From Paragordius varius (Eukaryota > Animalia > Nematomorpha), in assembly GCA_964247055.1 (NCBI GenBank), contig OZ176056.1, positions 2,666,001 to 2,730,000 of the forward strand: a DNA stretch of 64,000 bases, given 5' to 3'. Both the position numbers and the translations under genes were made by a program. This document shows, one piece after another, positions 25,361-62,527 of this stretch (positions are counted from its first letter, which is position 1; every line of letters begins with the position of its first letter). The notes under the pieces were generated by a model. It saw only the letters and a program-made list of their open reading frames with translations. It did no database searches and was not told the origin of the DNA.

Positions 25361-28300
25361 TTATTTTAAATTAAAAATACCTCGTGGTCCTAATATGACA
25401 GAACCAACAGTAAATTTTCTAAACAATTGGATGGGATTTTCTGGGTCAACGGCTACCAAACACACAAAGATGGTACATCGTTTTTGTTCATCGGCATTTA
25501 ACATGAAAAGCATGTCTGTGGGGCGGCCAGCTACCTTTCTATTATCCTTTTTGCTATTTCTGTGTTTGGTATTATTGGCTTTTATTGATGTTGTTGTTTC
25601 AGATTCCGATTTAGATGGTCGATGCGTACTTTTTTTCCGTTTTTGATTGGACGCAGTAGAGGAAGGCGAAACAGTTTTAGCTGTGTTTTTGACTACGTTT
25701 TCGGAGTCATTATTAACAGTACTATCATCCGATGAACTGGAAGAATACTCTCGAAAATGGAATGAGGGGAGAAATAATTTTTGATCCGAATTTATTTTGT
25801 AGGCTTGTTGAGGGTGTTGCACTTTTTCTTGGCCACTTTGTGATTTGTTTTCTATCATATTGTCATTATTCGTTGGTGTGGATTCATTTACTTTTGGTTT
25901 AGACGATGTAACATTTTTAAAATCGAATTTATCTCTAAGTGTCTCCAGCAATTTCGGATTCGTTGTATCTAAAGATTTATATCCTTTTTGATCGGTTTTA
26001 TCAGTGGTAGTTCTACGCTGATAAGGGGCGATTGTATGTGGTATTATATGATATATCGGCGTCTTTTTCATAGCCATTAATTTTTGATCGATACAAACGG
26101 TGACTTTTATGTACAGACCTAGTTTATAAACGTAATCCGTAATAGAGTAGTTAGTGGACGTTCATAAACCATAAAAAGTATTAAAATGCCTTATAAAAAA
26201 TAAAAAACCACGACAAACACCTTAAATTTTTTAATAGCTAAAGTATTTAAAATATTTAAATTTATGATATATACTGGTAAAATCAGCTGTTTAGCTCAGT
26301 CAGTTGGTATTTCTTTATATTTATGTGGCGTATGATATATTTTTTGGATTCTTAAAGCCATTTCTTTGCAAAAAATTAGGTATCGACTTGTAAAGCAACC
26401 TCAAAATTGAACAAATTCGAAAACTGCTAAAGGCGTCAATTAAAAATAAATGGTAATTTAATTTTTTAATAAAAAGCTATATTGATTTCCTGAACATATG
26501 TACTTAAAAATTAATGGATAAATTTAACAGAATCATAAAAGGATATACAAACGCGCTAATAAGTTGTGTTTATTTGATAACCGCATATGACAAAATAATT
26601 TTATGTTAATTCAAATTTTACTTTAAATTGTCTTTCGAATACCCTATATCTTATAGATAAAAAATGGCTTAAACTGTTTAAAATATAAATTATGAATAAG
26701 CTTATATATATATTTCTATAAATCATATTTGTAAAATATACCCTGTATACTATGAGCGAAAAATGGAAAAACTATGTTTCTAATGCTGTTAAAAGATATC
26801 TGAAGTCTCCCGGATGTAGGTAGGTATCGAAGTGTTATGTCAATTTGACCCGTAGACTAGATATAATATCATTAAAATATATTATTTTTTACTAAGAAAA
26901 ATTTTATTGAAATAATATTAAATTTGGAATAAAATGTACCAAAAACCTTATTGGATGAGCTAAGTTTCTTGCTTAAAACGACATCGAACGTTTTTGTGAA
27001 ATCATGGCAAATTATATCGTTTTCCGTATTGGAGGAATTTTTCGGGGTTGTCCCACCCCTGTCATTTATTGGCCCAAACAAAAGTTGCGAGTTAGGTGGT
27101 ATAGAACCGAGGGCATCTAATAGCTTAAAAACTATTTCGCCATTTTCAGTTAAGCCACCTATTTTAGTCTTTGAAAACATACAAATTTTGCAACGATACG
27201 ATTCAAGTGCTGTTTTGATAGCGTTGCTTAACCAGAGATTACCATCCATACATTCCAAATAGTATTTATATAAGGCAGTATTGGTTGAAGAGTGATTCGC
27301 AAATTGACTTTCAAGACTTTGTAGGTCCTTATTTAATTTTATGAGTTGTTCCTCTGTAATCGGCATTTTCAGCAGGATAGGAATGTTGAAAGTTACATTC
27401 TCCCCGAATTGAGGTTTGGATGTTCGGTGGTGCATTTTAGTCACAAACACATGTGCCTCGTAAACATTATCTAATGAATATTTTTCGGAGGGTGTAACTT
27501 TAGTAGTTGTATGATCATCCGAATTTTTTGGGATTTCTTCAATATGTATGCCATTCCCGTCTTCATTGTAATTTTTGATGCAAATTCCATCCAAAATAGG
27601 CGTATACAATTGTTCTGAAACAAACTTCATAATTTCACGCATAGTTGGATTGATTGGAGGTACTTTGACGCACGGCGGGGAAAATATATTGGATGAACCA
27701 GTGCGTGATAATATTTGCCGTTTAAATTGAGTGAAATTTGGTGTTGGCGCAATTTTCCCATAAACTTTATCCTTTTTCTCTTCAACTATGCTTCCCGAAG
27801 AAGCAGCTTTGTGAATAACAAATCCATTTTCTTGGCCAGGGATGACTGGTTTTAAATTATCTCTAGTTTGAACTGAGTGGGTTGTCAAATTTGTTCCAAT
27901 TTGTCGGCTATCTAAATCTTTGTATGAATTTCGCTTTTGTTTTACCTGCGGATTCTTTAATGTCGTACTGGGTGCTAAAGTGCGCATATCCTCCACGCAA
28001 ATCATTACAGCTGTATTCATGGTGTGTGAGAAAAAGCGATTATTTAAATCCCAAGATCTAAACAGTTTAATTCGAAACGCAATGCTGTATACGGCATTTT
28101 GACTATCTATTATTCCATGAGATATCAAATTAATATTTCCCTTTCCCACTCTTTCTAAATCGATGGGGTTAGGTCGTTGAGTATTTTGGGATAAATCCGA
28201 AATCATATTTATCGCCAAGGATGGTATATCAAAATGAAGCCCATATTGGATTTGACCCCGATAAAAACTACCTCTATTATAATACCCATTTCTGGTTAAT

Positions 28301-30382
28301 AAGGACTTATCCCCACTTTTTCCCATATATTTTCCATCGGTATTGGGATGATCTGTTTTTGCCGAAGATTTAGTCGTCATCCATTGAGGGAGGAAAGTCA
28401 AAAGGTTATGAAACCTTTGGAAAGTTAAACTAGGTGTGGGCCTATTCATATTTAATAGCGTAGTGTCCTAAACAAACAGAAATGATATGATAAAATGTAA
28501 AAAAAAATTTAAATAACTATATTTTGTATTTTATTATAAGAGTTAAAATTGAAATAGGATATACATTTTCTAATATGTCTCCCATGGAACCAGTAGCCTG
28601 ACTGCTGTTATGAGAAGGGTATCGTTTAATTCTAAATATGTGCCACCATTGGTGAGGCTCTTCTATATGCTTCAAATTTTTATATGTATCTATAAGAAAA
28701 ATATTAATGGTTTTATATAAATTAAAATAAATTTAAATTTCTAAAAATGAGTCTAATTTATTTGGTACTCACCAAAAAAATTTAGAGCCGTGTACCATGT
28801 AATACCGTTGAATATTTCATAACTTTGACATATTTGTAAACAATTACACTCAAAATAAGTACATCAAAAAAATTAATGAATGATTGTCATAAAAAAGAAC
28901 TTTTAAAACGACATGCGATCCATGAATCGCGGTATACTTATTTTTATCTACAACGTTGAGATTTAACCCAAGAAGAAAACCTGTCCTGGTTTTTAATATT
29001 TATTTACAAGAGTTATACGTGGTTTTTCATTTAAATATGCATTCAAACTTATTTACTATATATTTCGTCGACTGTTTGAATTAATATTTTATGGTTAAAT
29101 ATTTGCACTGGTAGCAACCAAACCCAATTGTTTGAAAAAAAGCCTCTTTAAATATTGCCGATTTAACAATTACCAACACTCAATGAATTATAAATAGTTT
29201 ATTTATTGGAATGGCAAATTAAAAAATAGTAAAATAATAGTGACTAGTTTTAAATTCTCACAAGGGCATTCATTTTCAAACTGTTTATATGAGTGTGTAC
29301 AAATAACCTGATATACAACTATAAAAATAATTAAAGAAATGTGAAAAAAACTAAGGTTTGCTAAGATGAAACCGATACGTCTCCAAGAGCAGGTTAAATC
29401 GGAAATCTGATAACTTGTCGCTTTTTATAATAAAAGTTAGGCTTATTAAGAAGGCTTTTTTTAATTTTGTAATGTGTTGCATCTTAAATCAAATATAATT
29501 TATGATCATTTCGATTTGGTTTTTTGTTTAAAAGGTGTTTGTAAAAGAATATCAAATTGTTTAAGGAAGTAGATTAATTTGAATTCATAAACATATTTAT
29601 TTTTGCATGGAATCGGAAAGCCTTTGCAGGCAAAAAACAAAATAATTTTTGAGATCCGAAAGGACATCGCCTATTTTTTTGATTGATGGGGATTAAAAAT
29701 ATTTGCTTTTAAACATTTATTGTTTTTCTAGACATTATTCGCTAATTTCAATGGACAATTTTCTGATTACTGTCCCAACATTTTCTATATTTTAGTGATA
29801 CTTTAGAGCACACCGTTTTTGGTTTAATATTTAAAACCAACAAGGGTTTATTCACAATTCTATAAACTTTCCAAACATGCAAGCAATTTCCCTCGTTCCC
29901 CAATAATAAGCCCCCTTCATTACAATGAGATTTTTCAAATAAATAATGTCTATGAACTAAATAGCTCATGCTCATCGACTTTCCAATTCGTAAATACGGA
30001 CCTAATGATTTGATTCCCATAAACTAGTGTGTTGGTATAAAGCTATTATACGGAACCAAGATGATAAAAAAAATCAATCATTTTTTTCACAAATATCTGT
30101 ATATATATTATATAATAAAATTCAATTTTATATATCTTTTAAAAAGAATCACGTTGCGAATAAAGACCCATGTATTTTTTCCCAAAGTAGACGTTTATAA
30201 GAGGGGGGTCAGCAAAATAATAATATAAAATTACTGAAATAATCCAAATTCTGGGCAAATACATCATCCAAAGTGTTTTTTCGCCGTCGCCGTTTCTTTA
30301 GCAAATCGATCGCCAGGTAAATTAGGAATAAAAATATAACCGCCATCAACGTTAAGAGTCCAATCAATACATAAATATTCAT
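25361..30382 (-). CDS. Divergent synaptotagmin-like protein (N-terminal TM + two C2 domains with large insertions); model incomplete
   Basis: Exon 1 (30382..30235) MNIYVLIGLLTLMAVIFLFLIYLAIDLLKKRRRRK is a TM plus basic patch. C2A-like RGQIQYGLHFD, FVTKMHHRTSKPQFGENVTFNIP and CKICMFS...GEIVFKL lie in the 525-aa ORF (donor at 26946). Exon from 26856 gives STGQIDITLRYLPTSGRLQISFNSIRNI (cf. Syt C2B GDICFSLRYVPTAGKL). GLYIKVTVCIDQKLMAMKKT and TIFVCLVAVD...TVGSVILGP lie in and just upstream of the 238-aa ORF. Some middle exons and the final exon are unresolved. Confidence 0.72.
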
Positions 30383-37502: not shown

Positions 37503-40215
37503 ATGTTGTCTATGTACCAACTTATTATGTCAAAAATGGCATTCCTAATGTTAACAATCATGGCAATTTTTGTGATAACTTCTGCCCAATCGTCAGCTAT
37601 TAAATGCCCAATTATGCCAACTACTGTTGAATGCACTTGCAATGCAACAATACTTGATTACAAAGATATGTTTTATGATGTTTTTTGTCATAGTTTAACT
37701 GATCAGGACCATATTTATAATGTTTTAAGAGTGTTTGATGATGCCGAATATCGTAATACGCCAATTAAATTGTTGATACAAGATTCAAAGTTTGACGATA
37801 TACAAATAATGAAATTGCCCAATATAAATGTCAAAATTGTATCCTCAAATACTATTTACTTCAATTGAAAAAATAAATGAAACTGCATTTGAAAATATGA
37901 ATGCCGAACTTGAAGAATTGGTTATTAAGGATCCACAAAGTTCGTTTCTGCGCGCAGATCAATTTCAAATGATAATGAAGGCGATGAGGCGCCTCACCAA
38001 CCTTAAAAAATTAACGTTAGATTTTTCGGATATAAAAACCTTAAATTTAAAACATTTCAATATTTTTACCCGATTGCATGAATTAACTTTGGCCTTAACT
38101 CATGTTACTGATGTACAAGGTGAACTAAATTAATCGAAATTAAAAAATTTACATTTTCAAAGCAAAGTAAGTGTGTTGCCTTTTCAAAAAGGTAATTTAC
38201 CGAATTTAGAAATGCTCACTGTAACGTCCAACTATCTCAAAAATATTGATAACAATTCTTTCAAATCTCTGCCAAATATCAAAAAATTGTATTTAAATGG
38301 AGGACAAAACATTGCCTTAAACGCCCTAGAGAACTTTAAATAATTAGAAATGCTTACTATGTCCAATAATAATTTGCGAAATTTACCCCTATTTTGTAAA
38401 TTAACAAGGTAAAATATTATTATTAAATGGGTTGCCAACAGTAAATACTTTGTTTGCTCTATTATCTATATGATACTTTATTGAATAATTGCATTACATT
38501 TTTTAAATTATCTTAATAAAAACGTGGTGATAAAGTGATTAACCCAAAATCATAGGCTATGTGTGAATGTGGCAAAATTTTATGCCTAAAACTCCGCATT
38601 TTTTTTCATCAATACTAAATTTAAATGAGAATCACCCGCTTTTGTAGTTTATAAATAATATGTATCCATTTACCCAAATTTGTATCGAAGTCTTGTAAAG
38701 AATAAATAATTTTTAACGCACATACTCGAATTCTTTTTTATTAACTTATTTGAAACACTTAGAATCAATAATTCTCTTTGCTGTATAGAAAAAATCAAGG
38801 AATTTCCGTGTTATCCCATATTATTGTTTCGAACACCTTTATTGCCGATGATGCTTTAACCAGTGATGTTTTTGACTATTGTAAAAACCTAACAGTTTTA
38901 ACATTGAGTGGAAGTAAAATTAGATATCTTCCCAACAATCTTTTACATGCCCGAAATCTCACCTATTTAGATCTAAACCATAATTATATGACTACAATTC
39001 CATCCGGTTTATTATCCAATCTACCTAATTTGGATTTTCTTGATCTGGGCTACAATAACATAACAACACATGTATCATCAAATGCATGGATCCAAAATCC
39101 TAAGTTAAACAGATTAAGGTTGGATGGAAACAATATAGAAAGCCTTAAAATTGGTAATACCGACCTACCATACTTAATGGCATTTGGTTTGATTAAAAAC
39201 AAACTTTCTACGTTCCTATTTCGATCTTTTATGGAACATAAAAACATTTCCCTTATTTACTTAAATGACAATAAGATTAAGAGCATTGATGGTTTGCTGG
39301 AACTCATTAGAGCTAATCCAACAATAATTATTGATCTTGAAAGTATGTAATTTATGTATAGACATATATATATAAAGATATAGAATACAGTCATGTATCC
39401 TTTATTTTATCAAAAAATTATTTTTTTTCATTAAATGGGTATAAATATTTGGTAAAGAATGGAAAAAACAAGACCTCCATGGTATTAATAATATCATATT
39501 TATCAAAAAAGTATAAGAATTATTATAGAGATCTTGTTTTTTCCATTCTTTACCAAATAATTATACCGATTTAACGCAAAAAAATAAATTTTTGATAAAA
39601 TAAAGGATACATAACTGTAAAGCTAAGAGCATCATTAGCGGTAAAAAGCGACTGTATAAGTATCTGGCAAAAATTATTTACTTATCCTGTTTATATTAAA
39701 ATTAAAGCAACCTTATTAGCATTAAAAATCCATCATTATAATCGAATTAATCAACGTTTATTATCAGCAAAACGTAACTTGGTTAAAACGCTTTTCTATA
39801 ACAATAAAGCCAGCTTAAATTTTGTTTTTATGCTAAGTAATCATAGCTATAACGAGCTGAACTTTTAATTCTTATTATTATTGTAGACAATCCTATTGTA
39901 TGTGATTGCGACGTGTATAATTTGGTGGATTGGTATCATCAAAATTACAAAAAACCTGTTCCAGAAAACGATGCAAAAATTGTTTCTACCGATAAGAAGG
40001 TTACTATTGATGTACCCCAACTTTACTTGAACGGATTATGTTCTAATCCGGAAATGAATATCACTGACATTTCAATTTTAGATGTAACTTTGATTGAAAA
40101 ACTTTCTCCTCTTTGCGCCGGGCAAAAAGACATAGGACACAGTTCCTCTGGGATTGGAGGACATAGTTCTTATGGCAGTGCCCACAATTCTTTGGGATTC
40201 AAAGATATGATTTAA
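37503..40215 (+). pseudogene. Secreted leucine-rich-repeat gene with disablements; exons ~37503..38408, 38789..39342, 39887..40215
   Basis: Signal-peptide-like start, LRRNT CP..CTC, many LxxLxLxxNxL repeats, LRRCT NPIVCDC..W, intact GT/AG sites. A frameshift near 37835 and in-frame TAA at 38131 and 38341 fall inside LRR units. Confidence 0.8.
39388..39617. mobile_element. Tc1/mariner-type MITE, 230 bp near-perfect foldback in an LRR intron
   Basis: TA|CAGTCATGTATCCTTTATTTTATCAAAAA ... TTTTTGATAAAATAAAGGATACATAACTG|TA. Confidence 0.9.
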
Positions 40216-43384: not shown

Positions 43385-44809
43385 GTTGTTGTTGTTGTTG
43401 CTAAGGTCGATTCCGACTAACTGCAACATTGAAAATATAGCTTCTCCATTCACTGCGATTACCGGATCTGGTGTTTAGTTAGGATAACGATTGGTTGGTT
43501 TCTTTGAGGATGTTATCCATCCAACGAGTTCGTCTTCTCCCTCTTTTTCGAGCACCACTCACTTTTCACAGCATCAGTGACTTTTCAATGAGTTGGCTCT
43601 CATAATGTGCCCGAAAAAGGAGAGTTTTTGCCGTATTAAGCTGCCTACAAGTGACATTCCTGGGTTAATTTTGTTTAGAATAGTGGTTTTTGAAATTTTG
43701 TCTATCTGTCCATTTTATTTGGAGAAGTTTCCTCCAAACTCATAATTCGAAAGAATTTATTTGACGTTCGTCATATTTTTTCAGTGTCCAGCTTTCCCCC
43801 CATACATGAATGTGGGAAAAACTGTAGCCTTGATTGATTTTGGTTTGTAGTTTAATGTCATGTGACATCCAAATCTTGTTATATTTAAAAGTGACTGCTT
43901 TAGCAATAGTAATTCTTCGCTTTCTGGCGTAGAGTTGTTCTCACTGTTAATAATGCTACCTAAGTACGTGTAATTGCTAACTGTTTCGATCTGGTTGCCG
44001 TTGAGGATTATTCGATTGGTTTGACCCTGATCCAATCGATATACTTACCAAATTATTTCAAACCATATTTAAGATGGAAAAAATTCCTGAGGATTGGTGC
44101 ACATCCATTATAATTCCGATTTTAAAAAGGGATTACCCAGAATTGTGCGACAACTATCGCACCATAGCGCTCATAAACCAGGTGTCCAAAGTTTACCTAA
44201 AAATAATACAGTTTCGACTAAATACGATTCTTGACCCCGAGATATCCACGATTCAGGCTGGTTTTCGAAAAGGTGGAGGATGCCGAGATATGATATGTAA
44301 TATGAGGTGGATAATCGAGAAACACATCGAATTCAACAAAGTTTTGCATATGTGCTTTGTCGATTTTTCCAAAGCATTTGATTCCATCCAGCACAATAAA
44401 CTACGGAAAGCTCTAAAACAACTTGGAGTGTCAACACATCTAATCAACGTCATATTCTCAATTTACTTATATTCCACGACTGTAATATCTACACCTCACG
44501 GTATATCTGACTCATGTAAAGTACAAATCGGCCTACGTCAAGGATGCGTTTTATCCCCAATTCCTTTTAACGCATACCTCGAGTGCATAATAAAAAAACA
44601 TCCCAGAAACTTATGGCATAAATGTAGAAGGAAACCTACTTACATCCGTTCACTACGCGGATGATACAATCTTATTCGCAGACAGTGTAGACACATTATC
44701 GCAAGCCTTGCAAGTGTTTACAACTGAATGCAATAAATTTGATTAAATATCAATTTAAAAAAAACAAAAGTAATGAAAATAAATCCGGCTCAAACCAATC
44801 CAATAATCG
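43385..44809 (-). mobile_element. 5'-truncated, 5'-inverted RTE-like LINE with (CAA)n tail
   Basis: RT motifs on + at 44044-44808 (IPEDW, NYRTIAL, QAGFRKG, FVDFSKAFD, RQGCVLSP, YADD). The RT C-terminal part and tail lie on - at 44040-43385 (YTYLGS, RTRWMD, CAA repeats). 10 bp TSD AGCTGATTTT at 43375-43384 and 44810-44819. Confidence 0.9.
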
Positions 44810-47430: not shown

Positions 47431-48361
<931 letters not shown>

Positions 48362-48431: not shown

Positions 48432-49181
48432 TTAGGTATCATTGTATAACAGTATATTAAATTTGGTTTCACATTTGCGAAAATAGTAAAAATAATTTTT
48501 TGTTAACGTAGTATTATTGGGTATATTTGTGACTTTTTGATTTTTAAAAAACCATGAATATAATAATTGAGTGGTATTGGACACATTATAATTAATCATA
48601 AGATTATGTAATATATTTGTGTTACAGAGCGCAGAAACAATGTAATAGTAAATTAAAAATTTATGTAATAACTCTCCTTTGAATTGGTAAAGCGATTGAG
48701 AATTTTCTGCCCATTTTACATTGACAGGTTGGTACTTGAAAATAAAAATTTTAGTAGTGGACTTGTTACCGATGATATAAAGCGCATTTCCTGTAAAAAC
48801 TGCGCGTGATTTTGATTTTTCAAATATCTTAACCAATGATTCCGTAGTTTTAGGAGTATTAGGTATTAAAGTTCTATTAAGTTTTAGCTGTGAGATATCC
48901 TGAGACAATGAGATTACTAGTTGCAAACAGTGATTAATGTAAGATTGATGCTTTTGTATCATCTCTTTGGCATAGTTATAAAAATATTGGTTATATTCAT
49001 CTAAGTTATTATTATTTCCTTTTTGGTATGATAAATAAAAAGTAGGAAAGCTGTTATTTTCGAATGTGTTTCCATATATGACTGGGTATTGTACTTGTAA
49101 TGTTAAAATTTCCTTAGTTTCAACGATAAAAACAAAAGTTGTGTCCAGAAGCGTTTTATGTGTTTTGAAAGAAATTTTCAT
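48432..49181 (-). CDS. Intronless 249-aa ORF of unknown function
   Basis: ATG-initiated 750-nt ORF in DNA where random ORFs rarely exceed 100 codons; no motif recognised. Confidence 0.55.
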   Translation of the reverse strand: MKISFKTHKTLLDTTFVFIVETKEILTLQVQYPVIYGNTFENNSFPTFYLSYQKGNNNNLDEYNQYFYNYAKEMIQKHQSYINHCLQLVISLSQDISQLKLNRTLIPNTPKTTESLVKIFEKSKSRAVFTGNALYIIGNKSTTKIFIFKYQPVNVKWAENSQSLYQFKGELLHKFLIYYYIVSALCNTNILHNLMINYNVSNTTQLLYSWFFKNQKVTNIPNNTTLTKNYFYYFRKCETKFNILLYNDT

Positions 49182-50038
49182 GCTGTAAAATGCATGTATA
49201 AAAAACAGTGCAAAATTATTCTTGAATTTTACATTTTAAATAAAACAAATTTATAATCAAAATATGCCTAAATCATCATATATAAACAGGTAAATGAGAA
49301 TTTTTTGTTATAACTAAAGCAAAAAAAGTTTTTACAAAGTTTTTGATATGGGTTCCGAAAGGAATTTTTGAACCGGTCGTAAATGGGCAAATTCTCTTAA
49401 AATAAAGGCGAAAAGGCCAAGTTTGAGCCATAAATACTATTATTATATATGCCAAATATATGAGATCAAAAAAACTTTTGCCCAAAAAAAATATTTTGCT
49501 TAAGAATTTAACTTATAGGGAAATTTTGTCGAAAGGCATAATGCGACCGGTGTAAAAGTGCACTTCAACCACAGTTTTTTAAAATAAACGTTAATTTTTT
49601 TATAATAGCAAATTACTCAAATTTCCCATCAAACCAACGAGTTAAATTTTGAGATAAAGAACAAGACCCTCGAATTACCTAGCAAAAATGTTTTTATAAT
49701 ATATTATAGCGTTTTTATACCAACACAGCCCAAGTTCCTAAAGAGCTAGAGGGCCAAAACTTTGGAGAAAAGATCGTAATTTATATTGATTAACATAATT
49801 TTTTTCCCTTATTTGATATTTATTTATTATTTATAGGTTAAATTATATATTATTGGGAAGTGATCATTTTAAGATTGTTAAATTTACACATAATGCATTT
49901 AAATATTTTTTTTACTGGTTCTTACTTATTTTAATATAAAAAAATAAAACAAAGCTAAAAAAATGGAAATTGTCATCACAATAAATATGAATATATTCAT
50001 ACATATATTCACTTGATCTTGCCCATTCCTTCCTTTTA

Positions 50039-50185
50039 CACTGTGCGCAAAAAGGGGGGTAAAAAATAAACATGATTTTTATCTAGAATAATAAGAAATC
50101 CCTCGGAAAAGAAGACCCCATTCCGAGGGATTTCTTATTATCCCAGATAAAAATCATGTTTGTTTATTTTTTTGTGCGCACTGTG
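50039..50185. mobile_element. 147 bp hairpin MITE
   Basis: CACTGTGCGCAAAAA ... TTTTTGTGCGCACTGTG; inner arms ATAATAAGAAATCCCTCGGAA / TTCCGAGGGATTTCTTATTAT are perfect. Confidence 0.8.
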
Positions 50186-50576
50186 TTATATGATATTTTT
50201 GAAATGAAGCACTTATCCCTTAAAAAAATTTAGCAAAATGTGCGAAAATAGTGCCATTTTCATATAGGGAACACGTAATACATATGTAAAATAAATAGCC
50301 ACGGCCACCAAGCGCATCATAATAACTCTACATTTTTCTATTAGATATGTATAAGATATATATGTAGACATATATCATCTAGATATCTTTTATGGTGGTT
50401 TATCTTAAACGCAATAAATGTGCGCTAATTGGCCTATTATGTATAGTAACTCAAACCTTTTATCATAACATAAATATATATATTGGTAGTTTATTATACC
50501 ACACGATTTTTTGCACTGTTTCTAATAATATTTTATCAGTTTAATTTCATACAATCATAAAACAAACGAATAACGC

Positions 50577-52289
50577 ATGTTACCGTGGAAGCTTGCAAAA
50601 CAGGCAGCAAAAAAACTTAGCATTCGTAAAACCAAATCAATATTATTTCAATTTAACCCTTTTTGCGAAAATCAACAAACTATACGGTAATGGATCACTT
50701 TGATAACCATTATTTTTTACCCCTAATTTCTAATATAGTTTTATCATTTTTGGCTTACATAATATGTGGAAAGTTAATTGTCTCCCTTAGTCCACTGTTT
50801 TTAAATGCTAAAATTGTTGGGAAGGATATGCATAAAAAAGAAACTGTTTTGATTCCTGAAGCTATGGGGATTGTGTCCGGATCTATATACATAATTACGA
50901 TGTTTACATTTATACCCATGTACTTTTACAAAGTACTCATGAATGAAACCATTTTCCCTTATGCGCCTTTTGTCGAATTTTTGGCCGGACTCTTGTCCAT
51001 ATGTTGCATGCTGTTACTTGGATTTTCGGATGACATTTTAAATTTAAAATGGCGCTATAAACTTATATTACCTACTGTTGCAACACTACCTTTGTTAATG
51101 GTTTACATGATTAACATTAATTCTACTACCGTTATTTTACCTCAACCGTTCAAAAGTTTGATTGGACCAACCTTAAATTTGGGCTTTTTTTACTACATTT
51201 ATATGGGTATGTTGGCCGTTTTCTGCACCAATTCCATTAACATCCTCGCCGGCATTAATGGACTTGAAGTTGGTCAATCTTTAGTCATATCGATCTCAAT
51301 TCTTATCTTCAATTTCATTGAGTTTTCCGGTGAGTATTGGAAAAATCATTTGTTTTCCATAAATTTTATTATGCCATACATTGGTACTTCGGCAGCTCTG
51401 TACTCATATAATCGATACCCTGCTCATTTGTTTGTGGGTGACACCTTTTGCTATTATTCAGGTATGACATTTGCAGTCATTGCCATCCTGGGTCATTTCA
51501 GTAAAACTGTCCTGTTGTTTTTTCTGCCCCAAATTTTTAATTTTCTTTTCTCATTTCTTCAACTTATGGGTGTTATCCCTTGTCCAAGGCATCGCATGCC
51601 CTTGTATGATGCCGAAAATGATGTCCTTATTCAAAGTTATACAGAATTTTCGCCCAATCAACTTTCGAAATTAGGGCATATACTTTTATACATTTACCAA
51701 AAATTGGGTTTAGTATCATGTCAAAATGTTAGCACCGAGAAAGACAAAACAATCCTGCGGTGTAGTAATCAAACGCTTATAATTTTATTGTTAAAGGTGT
51801 TTGGTCCCATGAGGGAAGAAATTTTATGCCAAAAACTTTTAATACTTCAAATAGTTGGAACTTGCATAGCATTTGTAATTAGATATCCCTTAGCCAATAT
51901 AATTTATTGATTTATAATTATTATAGATGTGAAATATGCTTTGTAATAAATGGGAAATATTTCTTTTCAATAGACGATGTTTACAAATGTTCAGTCAAAA
52001 GAAAAATTGGTGTGCCCTTTCAGATCTTGTAATTAGGAGCGATGTGATAAACGAAGACCTAGAACCCATTATAACTTTTACCTTAAGTATATTAAATTAA
52101 AATATAGGTGATAACTATAACATTGTTATGAAAGCAAGGAACTTAAATTGTGTCGAAATTGTAGAGATATATAAAAACATTGTAGAGGCCCGATTTCCAG
52201 TTCCTGTAGAATCTGTTACAAAAGCGCCACAAGAAGTCTCAAAAGCCCAACAAAAGATAAAAGCAAAGATTAAAACAAAAATATCATAA
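50577..52289 (+). CDS. MRPL53: Mitochondrial ribosomal protein L53, 134 aa; join(50577..50686,51974..52086,52108..52289)
   Basis: KSILFQFNPFCENQQTIR|RCLQMFSQKK...SDVINEDLEPIITFTLS|DNYNIVMKARNLNCVEIV aligns without gaps to recalled mL53 (VQFCPFEKNVESTRTFLQ...DVRHDGSEP...LIMRGAHLT..EM). Both junctions are phase-matched GT..AG; intron 1 is 1287 nt and intron 2 is 21 nt. Confidence 0.85.
50690..51910 (+). CDS. DPAGT1: UDP-GlcNAc:dolichyl-phosphate GlcNAc-1-phosphotransferase, 406 aa, intronless, nested in MRPL53 intron 1
   Basis: IPEAMG, LGFSDD, FCTNSINILAGINGLE, FVGDTFCY..G, FSKT.LLFF.PQ and CPRHRMP motifs. The first in-frame ATG is at 50690 (the ORF-track start is a TTG). Confidence 0.97.
   Translation: MDHFDNHYFLPLISNIVLSFLAYIICGKLIVSLSPLFLNAKIVGKDMHKKETVLIPEAMGIVSGSIYIITMFTFIPMYFYKVLMNETIFPYAPFVEFLAGLLSICCMLLLGFSDDILNLKWRYKLILPTVATLPLLMVYMININSTTVILPQPFKSLIGPTLNLGFFYYIYMGMLAVFCTNSINILAGINGLEVGQSLVISISILIFNFIEFSGEYWKNHLFSINFIMPYIGTSAALYSYNRYPAHLFVGDTFCYYSGMTFAVIAILGHFSKTVLLFFLPQIFNFLFSFLQLMGVIPCPRHRMPLYDAENDVLIQSYTEFSPNQLSKLGHILLYIYQKLGLVSCQNVSTEKDKTILRCSNQTLIILLLKVFGPMREEILCQKLLILQIVGTCIAFVIRYPLANIIY
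51945..51950 (+). terminator. Candidate poly(A) signal for DPAGT1 inside MRPL53 intron 1
   Basis: AATAAA 34 nt after the DPAGT1 stop and 23 nt before the MRPL53 exon-2 start, followed by a T-rich tract. Confidence 0.55.
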
Positions 52290-52311
52290 ATTTATTAATT
52301 GCATATCGAAA

Positions 52312-52615
52312 TCAATTTAATCCTCCACATTTTTCTGCTTCCTTTTGCGAATAAATTTTATTTTTAACAACATATTTTTGTTTTTGCTTGTGTGTTTTTG
52401 ATTTTAAATGGTCTTGTAGTGAAATTTTATCTATAAATGTCCGGGCACAATATTTACAATATAAATCTGAAAATTATAATTCATAAACCATTGTTATGAC
52501 CCAAAGTAATATCATCATGTATTTGATCCAAATCTTTAGCTCTACGTTTGGTTTTAGCCTTTTTTCTCTGATATAAATTCTTTTTGTGAACGTTATGAGA
52601 CCGATACCGACCCAT
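52312..52615 (-). CDS. ZNF593: Zinc finger protein 593 / Bud20 (pre-60S factor), two exons
   Basis: MGRYR...KAKTKRRAKDLDQIHDD, LYCKYCARTFID...HLKSKTHK and YSQKEAEK..G; acceptor at 52467, donor at 52488 (22-nt intron) or 52500 (34-nt intron). Confidence 0.92.
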
Positions 52616-55056
52616 GTGGATGTTAAACACAAATTAGTTTTGATATCTGGAAAAAATATAATTTATATTTATACACTTCATCACCTTTTAACAATTAAAT
52701 ACCTCTTCACTTTTTTGTCGTAGTTTACATATTGGGGTAGTTTTATAAAGCACTTTATAAATAAACTAGAGTTTTGAAGCTGTTATAGTTAATATTATCA
52801 AACAATGTTCTCATCTATCTATATATAAAAGTGAGCTTTAAACAAGACAGGAAAACGCCATTCCAATTCCAAAGTAATAATTATTTAATCATTTATTAAT
52901 ACGCCGACAGTGACTTACCCCTTTTTTAATTAGGCACCCAATTTTGTCCCATCCCGTGTAAGTCGCTTTTTTGAATGAATGGAAGTCTATCTAATTTTAG
53001 ATTTGAATAATGTTTCCGGAAAACTTATGGAGTTTCAATAGTGTACTTTCATAATATTTCGCAAGTGCGCCGAGAGCTAAGCCTTAGTGTCCCCTCACTT
53101 AAGCCCACACTTATGAAAAAATGAGGTCTGATACCGAAAAATGTGTGGCCACAATCAGTTTCAATAGTCTACTTTTTATATTTTTTACAACACAGAGGGT
53201 GCCTAATAAATAAGACCTTCAGTTTTACCCTTTCCCGTGTAAAAGAGGAGTTTTAGAAAAATGGAAGTCCCTAAACTGGTTTTTTAATAATATCAATATA
53301 AATTTGGTATGGGGTCACTAGTTAATTGAAATCCAAATGTTAAGACATCATGTATAGATTTTTCTAAAAAATTCGACGATATTTTCATCACCTCATATGA
53401 TTGAAGAAATGATTTTGATCCACTTTTATATTCTCATTTTGTAGGGAATGACATATTGGGGTAGTTTTCTACATCTGAGCTTAAATTAGTATACAAAGTA
53501 CTGTTAATAAAGTCTTGGTTAAAATTTAATTACTACTTTTTTCTAGTAGCTAAAACTTAAAATTTTAACATTTTTTAACTTCCAGAGTTAAAAATTCAGA
53601 ATCCATCGAAAGTTCCAAAACACGACTAAAAACAGCTGATAAAATTTAATAAATAATGCCGGCAAATTAATTATAAAAGGTTTCCAAATTATATTTTTAT
53701 GATATACATTTATTTACCTGTTGTATTCACGATTTAAAAATTGAAGAAAAAAAAGGCGGCGAAAAAGTTTGATGTGAGATTTTTACAGTTTTACAATTAA
53801 AAAATGTATCATGCGCCAAAAGGCTATATAAAGCATATTTTTAAATTTGTCCCAAGGTTATAACGCCCCAAAAGATCATGAAGAAGGAGATACTTAACAA
53901 TTAAATTTATATTTAAAAACAATTTTTTTAACAATATTCTGAAATGATAAAAATGTTCAGCATCCACGAATTTAAATGCTTTTTATCGTTTTTACCAGAT
54001 ACTGGCTCTTTATTGTTTTGCTAAAAATAAATTTACCAAGTATATACCTTTAAAAAATTATGTAATATTCTACCATATGCTAAAAATTTCCCGAAAACTT
54101 AGCATTTTTGCGTTTATTTTAACAAAAATCCATAATTTAAGACCTCAGGGCCTACATCTTAAGATTAAAGTTTATAAAAATATCTTATATATCATTTAAT
54201 ATATATTAATTATGTATTTTGAAATGAAACATTTAACTTTCAAAAAATTAATTAGCATAATAATTTCGATTTAGATATAATTAACAAGTGTAAATTTTTT
54301 TATAAAATGTCATTCAAAGATCTAGTACAGAGGTGTCCAACACAAATGGTTTCGCGAGTAAAAAATATTTTAATTAATCTCTTTTTAGATTTTATGCAGA
54401 AAACTTCTAAAATAAACTATGGATAAAATTTTAATAGTTTTTTTATCACTAATTTTTGCTAGCTCGTTGCCAAAAAATTGGAAAGACTTATTCGGAAATC
54501 GTTAAGAAATCTAAGAAAATCAATTTACTTAGATTTCTTGTAAAAGGATTATTTTGGCGAATTATGGTGGTATTTATAAGTATTTTTTCAAAAATTTTGT
54601 GGCCCACTGTAATTTTATCGGAGAGCCGTATGTTGTGCACTGCGATATAGCATTAACCTTATATATAATTTATTTCTTGTAAAACGGTATGTCTATATTT
54701 TTCTCATTCATCAAAAATTAACTAAATCGTTTATTTTCTTAAGGGCGTCCACATAAAAATTCACAAGTAGTAACGTTCTATCAAAATTTATACCAATTAA
54801 AACTTGATCAATAGCAACTTTCTAATGCTTCAAAACTTGATATCGATTATATAAATTAGAATGAAAGCTAATCAAAAAATATTTAAACAATTGTTAATAT
54901 CATAAAAGCAACAAAACTTTAAAAAATACAATAATGAGATCAATAAGAAAGCATTACCATTAATTATTAGACTATTTAACATTTATTTGTATTATAATTT
55001 TTATTCCTCTAAAACTGTATGGTAAAAAATGAAATCATCGTAAATAGTATCAAAAT

Positions 55057-58896: not shown

Positions 58897-61800
58897 CAAT
58901 CAATCAATCAAGTCGTTGTTTGTCCAGCATGTGCTAGCTTCCAAATTCTTGAGCGAAATAGCTTGCGATCGAGACAATCGTCTTTGTTCAGTTGAGTTAA
59001 GTGTAAGTCATTGCTGAGTGTTTTTTCCCAATCATGGTATGGTCTACCTCGTTTTAAATTGCCGTTCGGATGAAAGGATCTAATTTTGTTAATCCAACCA
59101 TTTGAGCGTTCAATGTGACCCCAGTATCTGAGACGATTTGCTCTGAGAAAAGTAGACATAGGTGCGATATGAAACAGATTATGTATGCTTTTATTATTAT
59201 TTGTTTTATCATTGTGATACTGATTGGTGAGGCAAGAGTTGAGGATTTTTCTTTCTATGTCACATAATTTATTTTCATTAGTTTGGTTTAAGGGCCAACA
59301 TTCGCTAGCATAGGTGAGGGCAGGGCGAATGGCAATCGTATAGATTTTGCCCTTGTTTGGATTTGAAATGTGTTTGTGTTTCATTATATACTTGAGTTGA
59401 TGAAATTTGGCCCAAGCCTGATGTGACCGTGTTGTTATGGCGTTTTTAATATTCATATCAGCTGCTATTGTATCACCCAGGTAATTGTACTTGTTTACTA
59501 TTTCGATGTTTGTAGTTGGAAGGTAGGTGGTTTGTGTGGGATTATTTGGGTTTATATCTGGTGTTGCACAAGCTTTACATATAAAATTTTCAATTCCCAA
59601 TAAACTTCCTTTAATTTGTGAGTACTTTTTATGGACCCACAGCTGGCATTTAGTGCATTTGATGGAATTAAGTTTCACTTCAGAGTGACAAATGGAGCAA
59701 GGGAATTTTATTACAGGTACCGGTGAGCCTGTTATTTAAGCCTTTGTTTTATCTGTGTTAATTTTGAGGCCAAATTTTTCTAAAGTAGATTTCCAGAGGT
59801 TATATTTATTGATAATGTCTGTTTCGCTGGTGGCTGTTAGTATTATGTCGTCAGCGTACATCATCTCAAAAGGTAAACCTGTTTTTATATTATCAGTTAT
59901 TACATCCATAATGATGATAAATAGTAATGGACTGAGGATGGAGCCCTGGTGTAGTCCGACAGTTACTGGAAATTGATTGGTATCACCCACGGGAGTTCTC
60001 ACGCAACTAGTGGTGTTCTCATATAGTAAGTTTATTATTCTTATTATCCATTCCGGAATTTCTTTTTTTCGTAACGCAAATGTGATCATGGACCACGGGA
60101 TGCAGTCGAATGCACGGCTTAAATCAATAAAGATGTGATATAAGGTTTTGTTTTTGCATCTGTAGTTCTCTTGTAGCCTTCTAAGAATGAATATGGCGTC
60201 AGAGGTGCTGATCCCCTGTTGGAAACCGAATTGGTTTTCGTCAATCGAGCAAAGCTGACGTATTTTCTTTTCTATAATTATTTCGAATAATTTGGTTGCG
60301 TGTTCAAGTAATTTTAATGGTCTGTAGGAGGCGCAGTTGAGCATGTCGCCTTTGTTTTTATATATTGGAATTATGACACTTTGGTTCCAGTCGTTCGGGC
60401 TTTTTTCCTCCATTATAATCAGATTAAATAGATCTGTGAAATAGGTAATTGCTTCAGGAATATTTTTGTACATTTCAGTTTTAATTTCCGTTGGACCAGA
60501 TGCCTTATTGATTTTACATTTTTGCATGGCTAAGCTCACATCTTCTGCAGTAATAATTGGGGGTGGCCCAATAACTGGAGGTAAGTTTGGGATCTCGACA
60601 TTTGAATGCTGGAAATTCAGTGTATTTTGCATGTATTGTGTCCATACATTTTGAATGCTAAGAGTGTCAGTAACTGTGTTGTTATTTTTATCTTTTATGG
60701 CTTTCACTACCCGAATATCTTTTTTATTATTATTAATATTTTTTAGTGTTTTAAAAACTTTTAAGTTTTTAATTTCTCCCTCAAGTTTTTTGGCCATTTC
60801 CAAACATCTTTCATTCATTTTGTCAGCTATTATTTTCTTTACTCTTTTTTTAACCATTATGTAAAAATGTTTGTCATCATCATGTTTAGAAGCTTTCCAT
60901 TTCTTAAAGGCATCTCTTTTCTCATTCAATAAGGGTTTAATATCGCTTTGCCACCACCATTGAGATTTTGTTTTGGTACGTTTTCTTCCGCAGATTTTGG
61001 AAACGTTTGAGAGAAGGGTGTTTTTGAGATGCTCCCAGCCGTCATGAACGTTGTTAGGGGAATGTTTTAGTTCAGGTGTAATTTGGTTGATGTATTGATG
61101 CTTTGTTTTAGGATCATTAAGTTTTGCAACGTTAAGTTGTGGCAATTTTTTAGGGCTAGGTCGGTTCTTATTTATTATTAAAAAAGCAACTATTAGTTTA
61201 TGTTGTGTATCATATTCATAAGTTTTAAAGTTGGTTATAATTTTTCTAAGTTGTTGGTTCAGCAACACAAAGTCTATTTGCGATGTGTGATTTCCGCTTT
61301 TATATGTGTGGATTTGGCTAGGTTTTTTACAGAAGTGTGTGTTGCAAATCAATAAGTTTGCGGCACTGCAGAATTCCAAGAGGGTTTCGCCCTCTTTGTT
61401 GCGAGAGCCAATACCTACTCCACCGTGTATACCTTCATAACCATCAGCGTGCATTCCAATTGTCCATTAAAATCTCCGCCGATCAGAAGTATTTCATTTG
61501 TGGGAACATTTTGTGCGATCTGATAAAGCTGATTCCAAAATTCCTGTTTGGTAGTTTCATTTTGACCCTGTTGAGGGGTATAGATGGATAGTATGTTAAG
61601 GGTGGTATTATTGAGAGCCACTCGCATTTGAATAATTCTGTCGTTGTGACGTGTAATGTCAATTATATTTTCTTTTATCTGATCGTTTATGGCTATTGCT
61701 ACCCCTGATTTCCCTGATTTTCCTCCTTCATAATACAGTGTAAAACCTTCATGTTGATAATTACCTCCGTTTTTAAAACGAGTTTCTTGTAAACAACATA

Positions 61801-62527
61801 TGTCAAGCTTTTGTTCTTTAATCGCATTTATTATCATCCAAGCTTTTCCAACAAGAGTTCCGACATTCCATGTGCCAAATTTAAAGTTGTTATTTTTAAT
61901 ATTAAATGATTTTTTCTCAGGTAATATTTCACTTTTCCGTAGATGTATTATAAATATAATTATTATTATTATGCAGTATAAAAATAAATAAATAAAATGA
62001 AGTTTCAAAGACGCTTTTATAAGTAGTATTTATTCATTATTATTTCGCTGTTGAACATGGTAAAAGTAATGAGGCTTGATTTTTATAGACTATATGCCCT
62101 TATAGCCAACCTCTTAACTCAGAGGAGAGAGTACCTTATTCGCTGTACCAGGCTAGAGAGTGTCTAAAAAAACTTCGAATCTCTCAATCCGTTTGTAGAT
62201 TTAAGTCTACGGCCGAGGGAGGTGCCTTTCTGGGCTTTGGAAGCTCCCACTCCATCTTTCGTTTTAAGTACTTATATTATCGTTATTATCATCTGGCTGC
62301 TGGTTATAGCGCCCAGATAAACCCGCTTTAAAACCATGTGTGTGAATACAGGCATTGTGGTATTTTGTAAGAAAATGAGACAGCCAATCTCAATTCCGCC
62401 ACGCCCCACACACTAGTTTTCCTCCTTGTGGATTGATGTTCATTGACTGTTCTTTACAAACAGTGCCGCTCCCGTTAGCGTTACCCGGGATGCCCCGCGA
62501 GGAGGTGGGAGTCGGTCTTTGCATCCC
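58897..62527 (-). mobile_element. Full-length RTE-clade non-LTR retrotransposon (APE-RT, internal PHD-like finger), recently disabled
   Basis: APE motifs GTWNV, LQETR, SIYTP, GGDFNG and SQIDF; RT motifs QFGF, FIDLSRAFD, GLHQGSILSP, YADD and YNYLG. One 1-nt frameshift at ~61460 and one in-frame TAA at 59738-59736. (ATTG)n tail; TSD TGATGTTAAATATTAT at 58881-58896 and 62528-62543. Confidence 0.97.
62466..62527 (-). ncRNA. HDV-like self-cleaving ribozyme at the RTE 5' end
   Basis: Minus strand: GGGAUGC(P1) AAAGA CCG-A-CUCCC(P2) ACC(P3) UCCUCGC(L3) GGG GCAUCCC(P1') GG(P1.1) GUAAC GCUAA(J4/2, catalytic C) C GGGAG-CGG(P2'). The core closely matches antigenomic HDV (CUCCACCUCCUCGCGG...GGCUAAGGGAG); G1 is the first base after the TSD. 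Confidence 0.88.

Follow-up and report, generated by a model that had tools for sequence, protein, structure and literature searches.

Organization of the mL53–DPAGT1 Locus

We describe a nested pair of genes in a 64,000-nucleotide (nt) stretch of the genome of the horsehair worm Paragordius varius (assembly GCA_964247055.1, contig OZ176056.1, positions 2,666,001–2,730,000 of the forward strand), hereafter the window. The host is the gene for the mitoribosomal protein mL53 (MRPL53), and the guest, which lies entirely within the first intron of the host, is DPAGT1 (ALG7), encoding the enzyme of the first N-glycosylation step. Both are read from the + strand. The host consists of three coding exons, located at 50577–50686 (36 codons plus 2 nt), 51974–52086 and 52108–52289 (including the stop codon; placed by orthologue alignment). 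They are separated by intron 1 (50687–51973; 1,287 nt), predicted by alignment with an orthologue, and by intron 2 (52087–52107), which is only 21 nt long, has GT–AG borders and contains an in-frame TAA. The intronless DPAGT1 open reading frame (ORF; 50690–51910; 406 aa) occupies 1,221 of the 1,287 nt of intron 1, so that 3 nt are spare on its 5′ side and 63 nt on its 3′ side. At the 5′ junction the two genes meet in the hexamer GTAATG (50687–50692), which holds the phase-2 5′ splice site of mL53 intron 1, a TAA that ends exon 1 if the intron is kept, and the DPAGT1 start codon.

It is very improbable that this arrangement is an assembly artefact, or that one of the genes is a dead copy. Five sequencing runs were judged to be DNA, with intergenic DNA and introns covered and no splice joints. 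Four of the DNA runs, all from one study and possibly the source of the assembly itself, have contigs that bridge the 5′ junction, including the hexamer; in two of these runs contigs also bridge the acceptor, and the hexamer is not spanned in the single run that a second study contributed. In three of the four bridging runs all differences were accounted for, and none of them fell in the hexamer. Both ORFs are intact, and among the variants listed most are synonymous (15 of 19 in DPAGT1, two of two in mL53). Finally, as described below, the linkage of the two genes recurs in Gordionus.

Identity of the Host Gene

Exons 1, 2 and 3 of the host taken singly, as well as exons 2–3 joined, gave no mL53 match in Pfam MRP_L53 or among solved mL53 chains, and a word-seeded search with single exons and with exons 2–3 also found no mL53. 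A full HMMER scan with exons 2–3 revealed four proteins, including the 116-aa Gordionus protein CAK9302148.1; the other three were 899–7427 aa long and gave many stretches. The Gordionus protein covers the whole Pfam MRP_L53 model at 23.5 bits, under the cut-off of 25.3 (E = 6.1e-5), and alone it matches solved human mL53 with E = 2.3e-5. Aligned to this protein, the three window exons cover its entire length, and both introns fall at the positions predicted; after splicing, the window product shows 45% identity to the orthologue (E = 2e-31), and exon 2 shows 57%. A profile built from this orthologue and the three window exons was then compared with solved chains, and all seven matches were mL53 (best E = 4.1e-8). 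By these sequence comparisons, via the Gordionus orthologue, the host is confirmed as mL53. Thus, the assignment made in an earlier reading of the letters and their ORFs (hereafter the sequence-only reading), for which an HMM check had been proposed, stands on the joint profile, the exons alone having matched nothing.

The same reading had supposed that splicing of intron 1 is enough for an intact mL53. The identity of the product was right, but removal of intron 1 alone gives 78 aa, and only when the 21-nt intron 2 is also removed is a protein of 134 aa ending at 52289 obtained. Among five splice models scored against the orthologue, the 21-nt model was the best (236 versus 201, 192, 161 and 59). 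The alternatives tried, with acceptors at 51926 or 51994 and with a 48-nt or a retained intron 2, fitted the orthologue less well and were rejected. Very short introns also occur elsewhere in the window, at 47623–47653 (31 nt) and 47759–47788 (30 nt), whereas the intron at 52087–52107 is backed by an orthologue.

Exon 1 encodes residues 1–37 of mL53. The first 25 of these include seven K/R and no D/E.

Identity and Start Codon of the Guest Gene

The DPAGT1 ORF matches PF00953 (Glycos_transf_4) with 99.5 bits against a cut-off of 27 (E = 2.5e-28). The eukaryote-specific insertion domain PF21383 scores 21.4 bits, below its cut-off of 27.1 (E = 2.6e-4), and reaches 31.2 bits in the Gordionus sister protein. 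Among the 120 matches listed, full-length identity to animal DPAGT1 homologues is 51–67%; the closest is the Gordionus protein (67%), and all others are at or below 59%. When a tree was built from the window protein together with 27 of the 120 homologues, the window and Gordionus proteins came out as sisters (100/100), separated by 1.14 changes per site, as is likely for a horsehair worm of a species other than that Gordionus.

In human DPAGT1 there are ten helices, and both termini face the lumen of the endoplasmic reticulum (ER) (PMC6218659). To characterize the N-terminus in the window we used a helix-1 profile made from 112 of the 119 other DPAGT1 homologues, the remaining seven having fewer than 15 residues in this region. 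Residues 1–29 counted from the ATG at 50690 scored 18.9 bits, a value reached by none of 2000 shuffles, while the best other segment of the same protein scored 4.8. Helix 1 is thus intact behind this ATG, at about codons 9–29. Since it is encoded within residues 1–29 and the next in-frame Met is DPAGT1 residue 47, a complete enzyme can be made only from the ATG at 50690. The retention of helix 1 in codons 1–29 therefore suggests that DPAGT1's own ATG is probably used.

The guest may have arisen by insertion of a processed copy, as judged from its lack of introns and from one intron-bearing DPAGT1 of animal type. In a metagenome scan of 26 stretches, one locus with an unrelated animal-type DPAGT1 was found; introns were present there, and it had no mL53 match.

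The GTAATG Hexamer

If intron 1 is retained, exon 1 becomes a 37-codon upstream ORF (uORF), and its TAA (50688–50690) overlaps the DPAGT1 ATG (50690–50692) by 1 nt. This ATG is out of frame with exon 1, with the stop lying between. The only ATGs on the + strand within 50400–50700 are at 50418, 50439, 50577 and 50690. We re-read all the coordinates on which the sequence-only reading relied, and they hold: the donor at 50687, the stop after 37 codons, the TAATG overlap, the position of the entire 406-codon ORF inside the intron on the same strand, and the lack of a further ATG between 50577 and 50690.

What has to be revised is the weight given to the hexamer. The sequence GTAATG occurs 15 times on the + strand of the window, and the other 14 copies open ORFs of no more than 82 codons, compared with 406 here. 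Among ten hand-called donors in the window, nine start with GTA and three with GTAA. Any phase-2 donor with GTAA yields an in-frame TAA, so the donor and the stop are not independent. The hexamer does have the three readings ascribed to it, but it is less surprising than first claimed because the stop comes automatically with the donor consensus; its true oddity is that a conserved 406-codon ORF opens at intron position +4. The same applies to the start contexts. The first ATG had been described as weak and the second as strong, and the bases are indeed as given (−3 C and +4 T at the mL53 ATG, 50577; −3 G and +4 G at the DPAGT1 ATG, 50690). The −3 G of the second ATG, however, is the donor's own G, and so its "strength" is imposed by the splice site.

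Conservation of the Gene Linkage in Gordionus

Two Gordionus protein models, one of DPAGT1 (XP_065321201.1, from RefSeq) and one of mL53 (CAK9302148.1), come from contigs of equal length, are identical over residues 1–36 and differ at residue 37, which is R in mL53 and S in DPAGT1. This is what one phase-2 donor with two acceptors would give. The common Gordionus stretch is identical to the window exon 1 at 13 of 37 positions, and none of 20000 shuffles reached its score. The alignment score was 54, and the best of the N-termini of 119 other DPAGT1s reached 23. According to the protein models, the position and phase of the donor of mL53 intron 1 are kept in Gordionus, and the sequences place mL53 exon 1 directly 5′ of DPAGT1 in both worms. 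Because the first 36 residues are the same in both Gordionus models, the gene linkage is old. As the two models are separate and have the same exon 1, they also lend indirect support, at the level of sequence, to a first exon common to both genes. CAK9302148.1 appears to stem from the annotation of Gordionus montsenyensis. That annotation drew on RNA-seq and protein evidence (bioRxiv 10.1101/2023.06.26.546503).

In XP_065321201.1, exon 1 is spliced into DPAGT1 near residue 23, and there is no separate DPAGT1 start. This form raises an explanation missed by the sequence-only reading, namely that DPAGT1 is an alternative 3′ exon, so that exon 1 would be spliced into the DPAGT1 ORF and a fusion made from the mL53 ATG. 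A candidate acceptor for such a splice, in frame and with a pyrimidine run, is present in the window at 50789–50790 and would give a 409-aa chimera of exon 1 and DPAGT1; a further acceptor inside DPAGT1, at 50738, is out of frame. Eleven gene sets of this type are annotated in Drosophila (PMC4528330). The N-terminus of the Gordionus chimera scores −1.1 bits with the helix-1 profile, yet its hydropathy (1.36), if low, still lies inside the range of 0.85–2.53 of 112 other DPAGT1s. For Paragordius, however, we regard this explanation as improbable. The chimera here would lack helix 1 and have a hydropathy of 0.05, and the acceptor would be at about residue 35, as opposed to about 23 in Gordionus. 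In-frame AGs are frequent in any case (nine of the 32 AGs in the DPAGT1 coding sequence). Moreover, codons 1–29 still encode a good helix 1, a feature that should hardly persist in intron sequence, and the basic start of exon 1 would suit mitochondrial import rather than an ER enzyme.

The Gordionus chimera itself may be real, or it may be an annotation that sidesteps the upstream ORF. Because helix 1 is kept in the window, a DPAGT1 that has its own ATG is likely the ancestral form, and the chimera is likely derived or mis-modelled. A search of proteins of 223–711 aa turned up no Gordionus DPAGT1 carrying its own N-terminus. A search with the Gordionus mL53 matched only the query itself (one of 36 candidates) and yielded no third worm, and the 37-residue Gordionus exon used as a query gave no usable Atlas match.

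Possible Modes of Expression

Because exon 1 and the DPAGT1 ATG are just 3 nt apart, the DPAGT1 mRNA must carry exon-1 sequence with the donor unused (or with a near acceptor used). As for how the two proteins are made, we tentatively prefer, at somewhat less than an even chance, a scheme with one promoter in which splicing would lead to mL53, and unspliced RNA, cleaved within the intron, would lead to DPAGT1 mainly by leaky scanning. The two genes would have a common promoter, a common first exon and one primary transcript starting upstream of 50577. A candidate for the common start site is the initiator-like TCAGTT at 50536–50541, 36 nt 5′ of the mL53 ATG. Joining of the donor at 50687 to 51974 and removal of the 21-nt intron would give the mL53 mRNA, the DPAGT1 ORF being discarded. 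A candidate poly(A) signal for this mRNA, AATAAA, is located at 52350–52355. Cleavage behind another AATAAA, the candidate DPAGT1 signal at 51945–51950, would, if it came before that splice, turn exon 1 into the 37-codon uORF with its TAA on the DPAGT1 ATG. DPAGT1 would then be translated from its own ATG, mostly by ribosomes that pass over the first ATG, whose context is poor, and to a minor extent by reinitiation. The shared start site, the intronic cleavage and the leaky scanning are all steps that we infer.

Several features agree with this scheme. Seen from the AATAAA at 51945, the DPAGT1 stop is 35 nt upstream and the mL53 acceptor 23 nt downstream; so near the acceptor, this signal would make cleavage and use of the 3′ splice site compete. 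The mL53 ATG has C at −3, compared with A at all three candidate starts of two neighbouring genes. As for the kind of unit, the unspliced RNA would encode 37 of the 134 mL53 residues and the spliced RNA would not hold DPAGT1, so that the locus falls outside the FlyBase definition of a dicistronic gene.

A number of points weigh against the preferred scheme. The start-context comparison involves just two genes, and the donor dictates the G at −3 of the second ATG. By chance, 14.5% of 63-nt windows contain an AATAAA. The initiator consensus TCAKTY is common, with 102 copies on the + strand of the window, and the TCAGTT at 50536 also resembles a 3′ splice site. The DPAGT1 model of the only relative is a spliced chimera and does not show a stop–start overlap. 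The case for retroposition consists of absent introns and a single intron-bearing animal DPAGT1. Lastly, the start codons of the HIG1 and HINT genes, 3 kb upstream, are only 11 nt apart, which suggests that start sites within coding exons occur here.

The last point leads to a different explanation, which we regard as a serious rival, if a less likely one: that DPAGT1 transcripts start at sites of their own inside mL53 exon 1, or come from a broad promoter extending over the mL53 ATG, or carry a leader spliced at the AG at 50620. There would be no uORF in this case. The locus would be a tightly packed nested gene with 50690 as the first ATG of its mRNA, and the TAA/ATG overlap would have no translational role. 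Consistent with this, there is no ATG from 50580 to 50689, and initiator motifs with one mismatch each are found at 50620, 50643 and 50648. On the other hand, the sole exact initiator match in 50400–50690 is upstream of the first ATG, and the AG at 50620 lies in an A-rich run with no pyrimidine tract. In flies, 3′ genes of dicistronic pairs usually get a monocistronic mRNA via a downstream promoter (PMC4528330). The RefSeq model from Gordionus, which joins the entire exon 1 to DPAGT1, is instead what would be expected if transcripts run through from the mL53 start.

It can also be supposed that the promoter is shared and the mRNA unspliced, as in the preferred scheme, but that DPAGT1 is made mainly by reinitiation after the 37-codon ORF through UAAUG coupling. 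The 1-nt overlap of stop and start is within the 20-nt range for coupled reinitiation (PMC10275272), and five fly dicistronic pairs have the same 1-nt overlap (PMC4528330). Whether ribosomes would remain competent after 37 codons is a point on which the studies cited in one review differ: in one, eIF3 stays on ribosomes for up to 60 codons, whereas another gives a half-length of 12 codons (PMC10275272). Reinitiation at this distance is therefore possible but uncertain. The region 50577–50690 lacks both a TGGGA motif of the type found in termination upstream ribosome-binding sites (TURBS) and GGG, and the position of the stop follows from the donor consensus and needs no selection for coupling. 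As the main route to DPAGT1, reinitiation thus seems to us a weak candidate.

We also considered a 16-nt inverted repeat between the end of exon 1 and the end of DPAGT1 as an aid to splicing. Its stability (−9.7 kcal/mol) was matched by 174 of 1000 shuffles, and it was rejected. An Rfam scan of 49000–54000 found no family at the cut-off.

Other Features of the Window

About 400 nt upstream of mL53, at 50015–50185, there is a long palindromic hairpin (−72.8 kcal/mol). Its DNA depth is tens of times that of the flanks, which points to a high-copy MITE-like repeat. The HIG1-family gene (47419, − strand) and the HINT gene (47431, + strand) mentioned above are arranged head to head. Their transcripts probably overlap; with the second Met of HINT as its start, the gap between the two genes would widen to 89 nt. 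Tail to tail with HINT, about 70 nt from its stop, is a 249-codon ORF with no Pfam match (48432–49181, − strand), which is covered by intact contigs in the DNA runs.

LINE-type retroelement ORFs were revealed at 58908–62029 (− strand; RVT_1 and endonuclease) and, by eye, at 44005–44664 (+ strand); they are a possible source of reverse transcriptase for retrocopies. Two ORFs of 531 and 266 codons at 25361–28467 (− strand) have no Pfam match and lie in a more GC-rich stretch, and they may belong to a mobile or virus-derived insert. Within 37780–37930, the frame of a leucine-rich-repeat gene changes near 37830 with no evident GT–AG intron; this may be a frameshift, an assembly error or an unusual intron.

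Comparison with Known Systems

Translation of DPAGT1 behind an exon of its own host would be the most striking feature of the locus. A wider reading, which we put forward as speculative and on the whole unlikely, is that across horsehair worms the essential ER enzyme DPAGT1 lacks its own promoter and leader, that the choice between splicing and cleavage sets the ratio of the N-glycosylation enzyme to the mitoribosomal protein with the host exon as a regulatory uORF, that the Gordionus chimera is a later step, and that mL53 intron 1 is a repeated landing site in animals. If this were true, the start codon of DPAGT1 would be inside the 5′ splice site of its host and its poly(A) signal would abut the host 3′ splice site, while in Gordionus the guest would have lost its own start and adopted the host exon in frame, so that a nested gene would have turned into a compound one like eIF2gamma/Su(var)3-9. 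Under the preferred scheme already, the locus would be a natural case of one exon that is coding for one housekeeping gene and a uORF for another. The two ends of one intron hold the splice sites, the stop, the start and the poly(A) signal, and this makes splicing versus intronic polyadenylation testable in a unit of 1.7 kb, as does leaky scanning versus reinitiation on a cellular mRNA. It should also be mentioned that in the relative's annotation the DPAGT1 chimera comes from one source and mL53 from another, so nested genes can be mis-modelled or missed. The BUSCO completeness of a nematomorph genome is 71.6% (bioRxiv 10.1101/2023.06.26.546503).

The sequence-only reading knew of no earlier description of the arrangement. 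As far as the layout is concerned this stands: a literature search conducted mostly outside subscription journals turned up neither the locus nor its layout, showed MRPL53 and DPAGT1 together only in one unrelated paper, and gave no paper with both "spliced leader" and "nematomorph". Each part of the arrangement does have precedents, including 1-nt overlaps annotated in fly mRNAs. The rows examined of the fly table contain no host coding exon 1 that stops on the start of a nested guest (PMC4528330).

The precedent invoked first, UAAUG termination–reinitiation in influenza B M1/BM2, which is also known from caliciviruses (PMC3035654, PMC10275272), is a weak analogy. The pentanucleotide overlap is the same as here, but there is no TURBS-type motif or UGGGA in 50577–50690 (the lack of UGGGA had been noted correctly), the upstream ORF is short and encodes an incomplete protein, and the overlap is explicable by the splice consensus.

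Dicistronic genes of flies are comparable in that one cellular animal mRNA carries an upstream ORF and yields a further protein from behind it, as would be the case here, with the stop touching the start. The five fly pairs with a 1-nt overlap include CG33785/CG33786, mus312/CG42307 and Pif1A/Pif1B; retained-intron variants that disrupt the 5′ coding sequence of dicistronics are reported for Tim10 and CG7071, and the mRpL53 gene of flies forms a dicistronic pair with CG33155 (PMC4528330). The fly dicistronics, however, have tandem ORFs that are normally both complete, whereas here the upstream ORF is a truncated exon, the guest is nested, and the full proteins would never come from one mRNA.

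The shared exons of ChAT and VAChT are non-coding. VAChT lies within intron 1 of ChAT with a common first exon (PMC3469465), and CPNE1 and RBM12 share non-coding exons (PMC2568002). In both pairs, as predicted here, a common first exon or promoter serves an unrelated same-strand guest in an early host intron, and the choice of splice sets the protein. The differences are that the exon presumably shared here codes for the host but, on the way to the guest, closes with a stop, and that just the first 3 nt of the intron precede the guest ORF. A single pathway also unites ChAT and VAChT, unlike mL53 and DPAGT1.

FlyBase treats same-strand nesting as ordinary, and it has 10 pairs and one triplet with a common coding first exon, among them eIF2gamma/Su(var)3-9, mRpL13/CG10602, Rpb4/Ada2a and sud1/PIG-S (PMC4528330). 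In eIF2gamma/Su(var)3-9, one promoter and first exon serve two unrelated conserved genes, and the Su(var)3-9 exon lies inside an intron of the host (PMC1435931). The Gordionus DPAGT1 model takes this form. In such genes the shared exon is in frame for both proteins, while in Paragordius the guest, as read from its own ATG at 50690, has a full N-terminus, out of frame behind a stop. The nesting of DPAGT1 in mL53 is genuine, of old origin and unusually tight, and it is probably a variant of shared-first-exon nesting.

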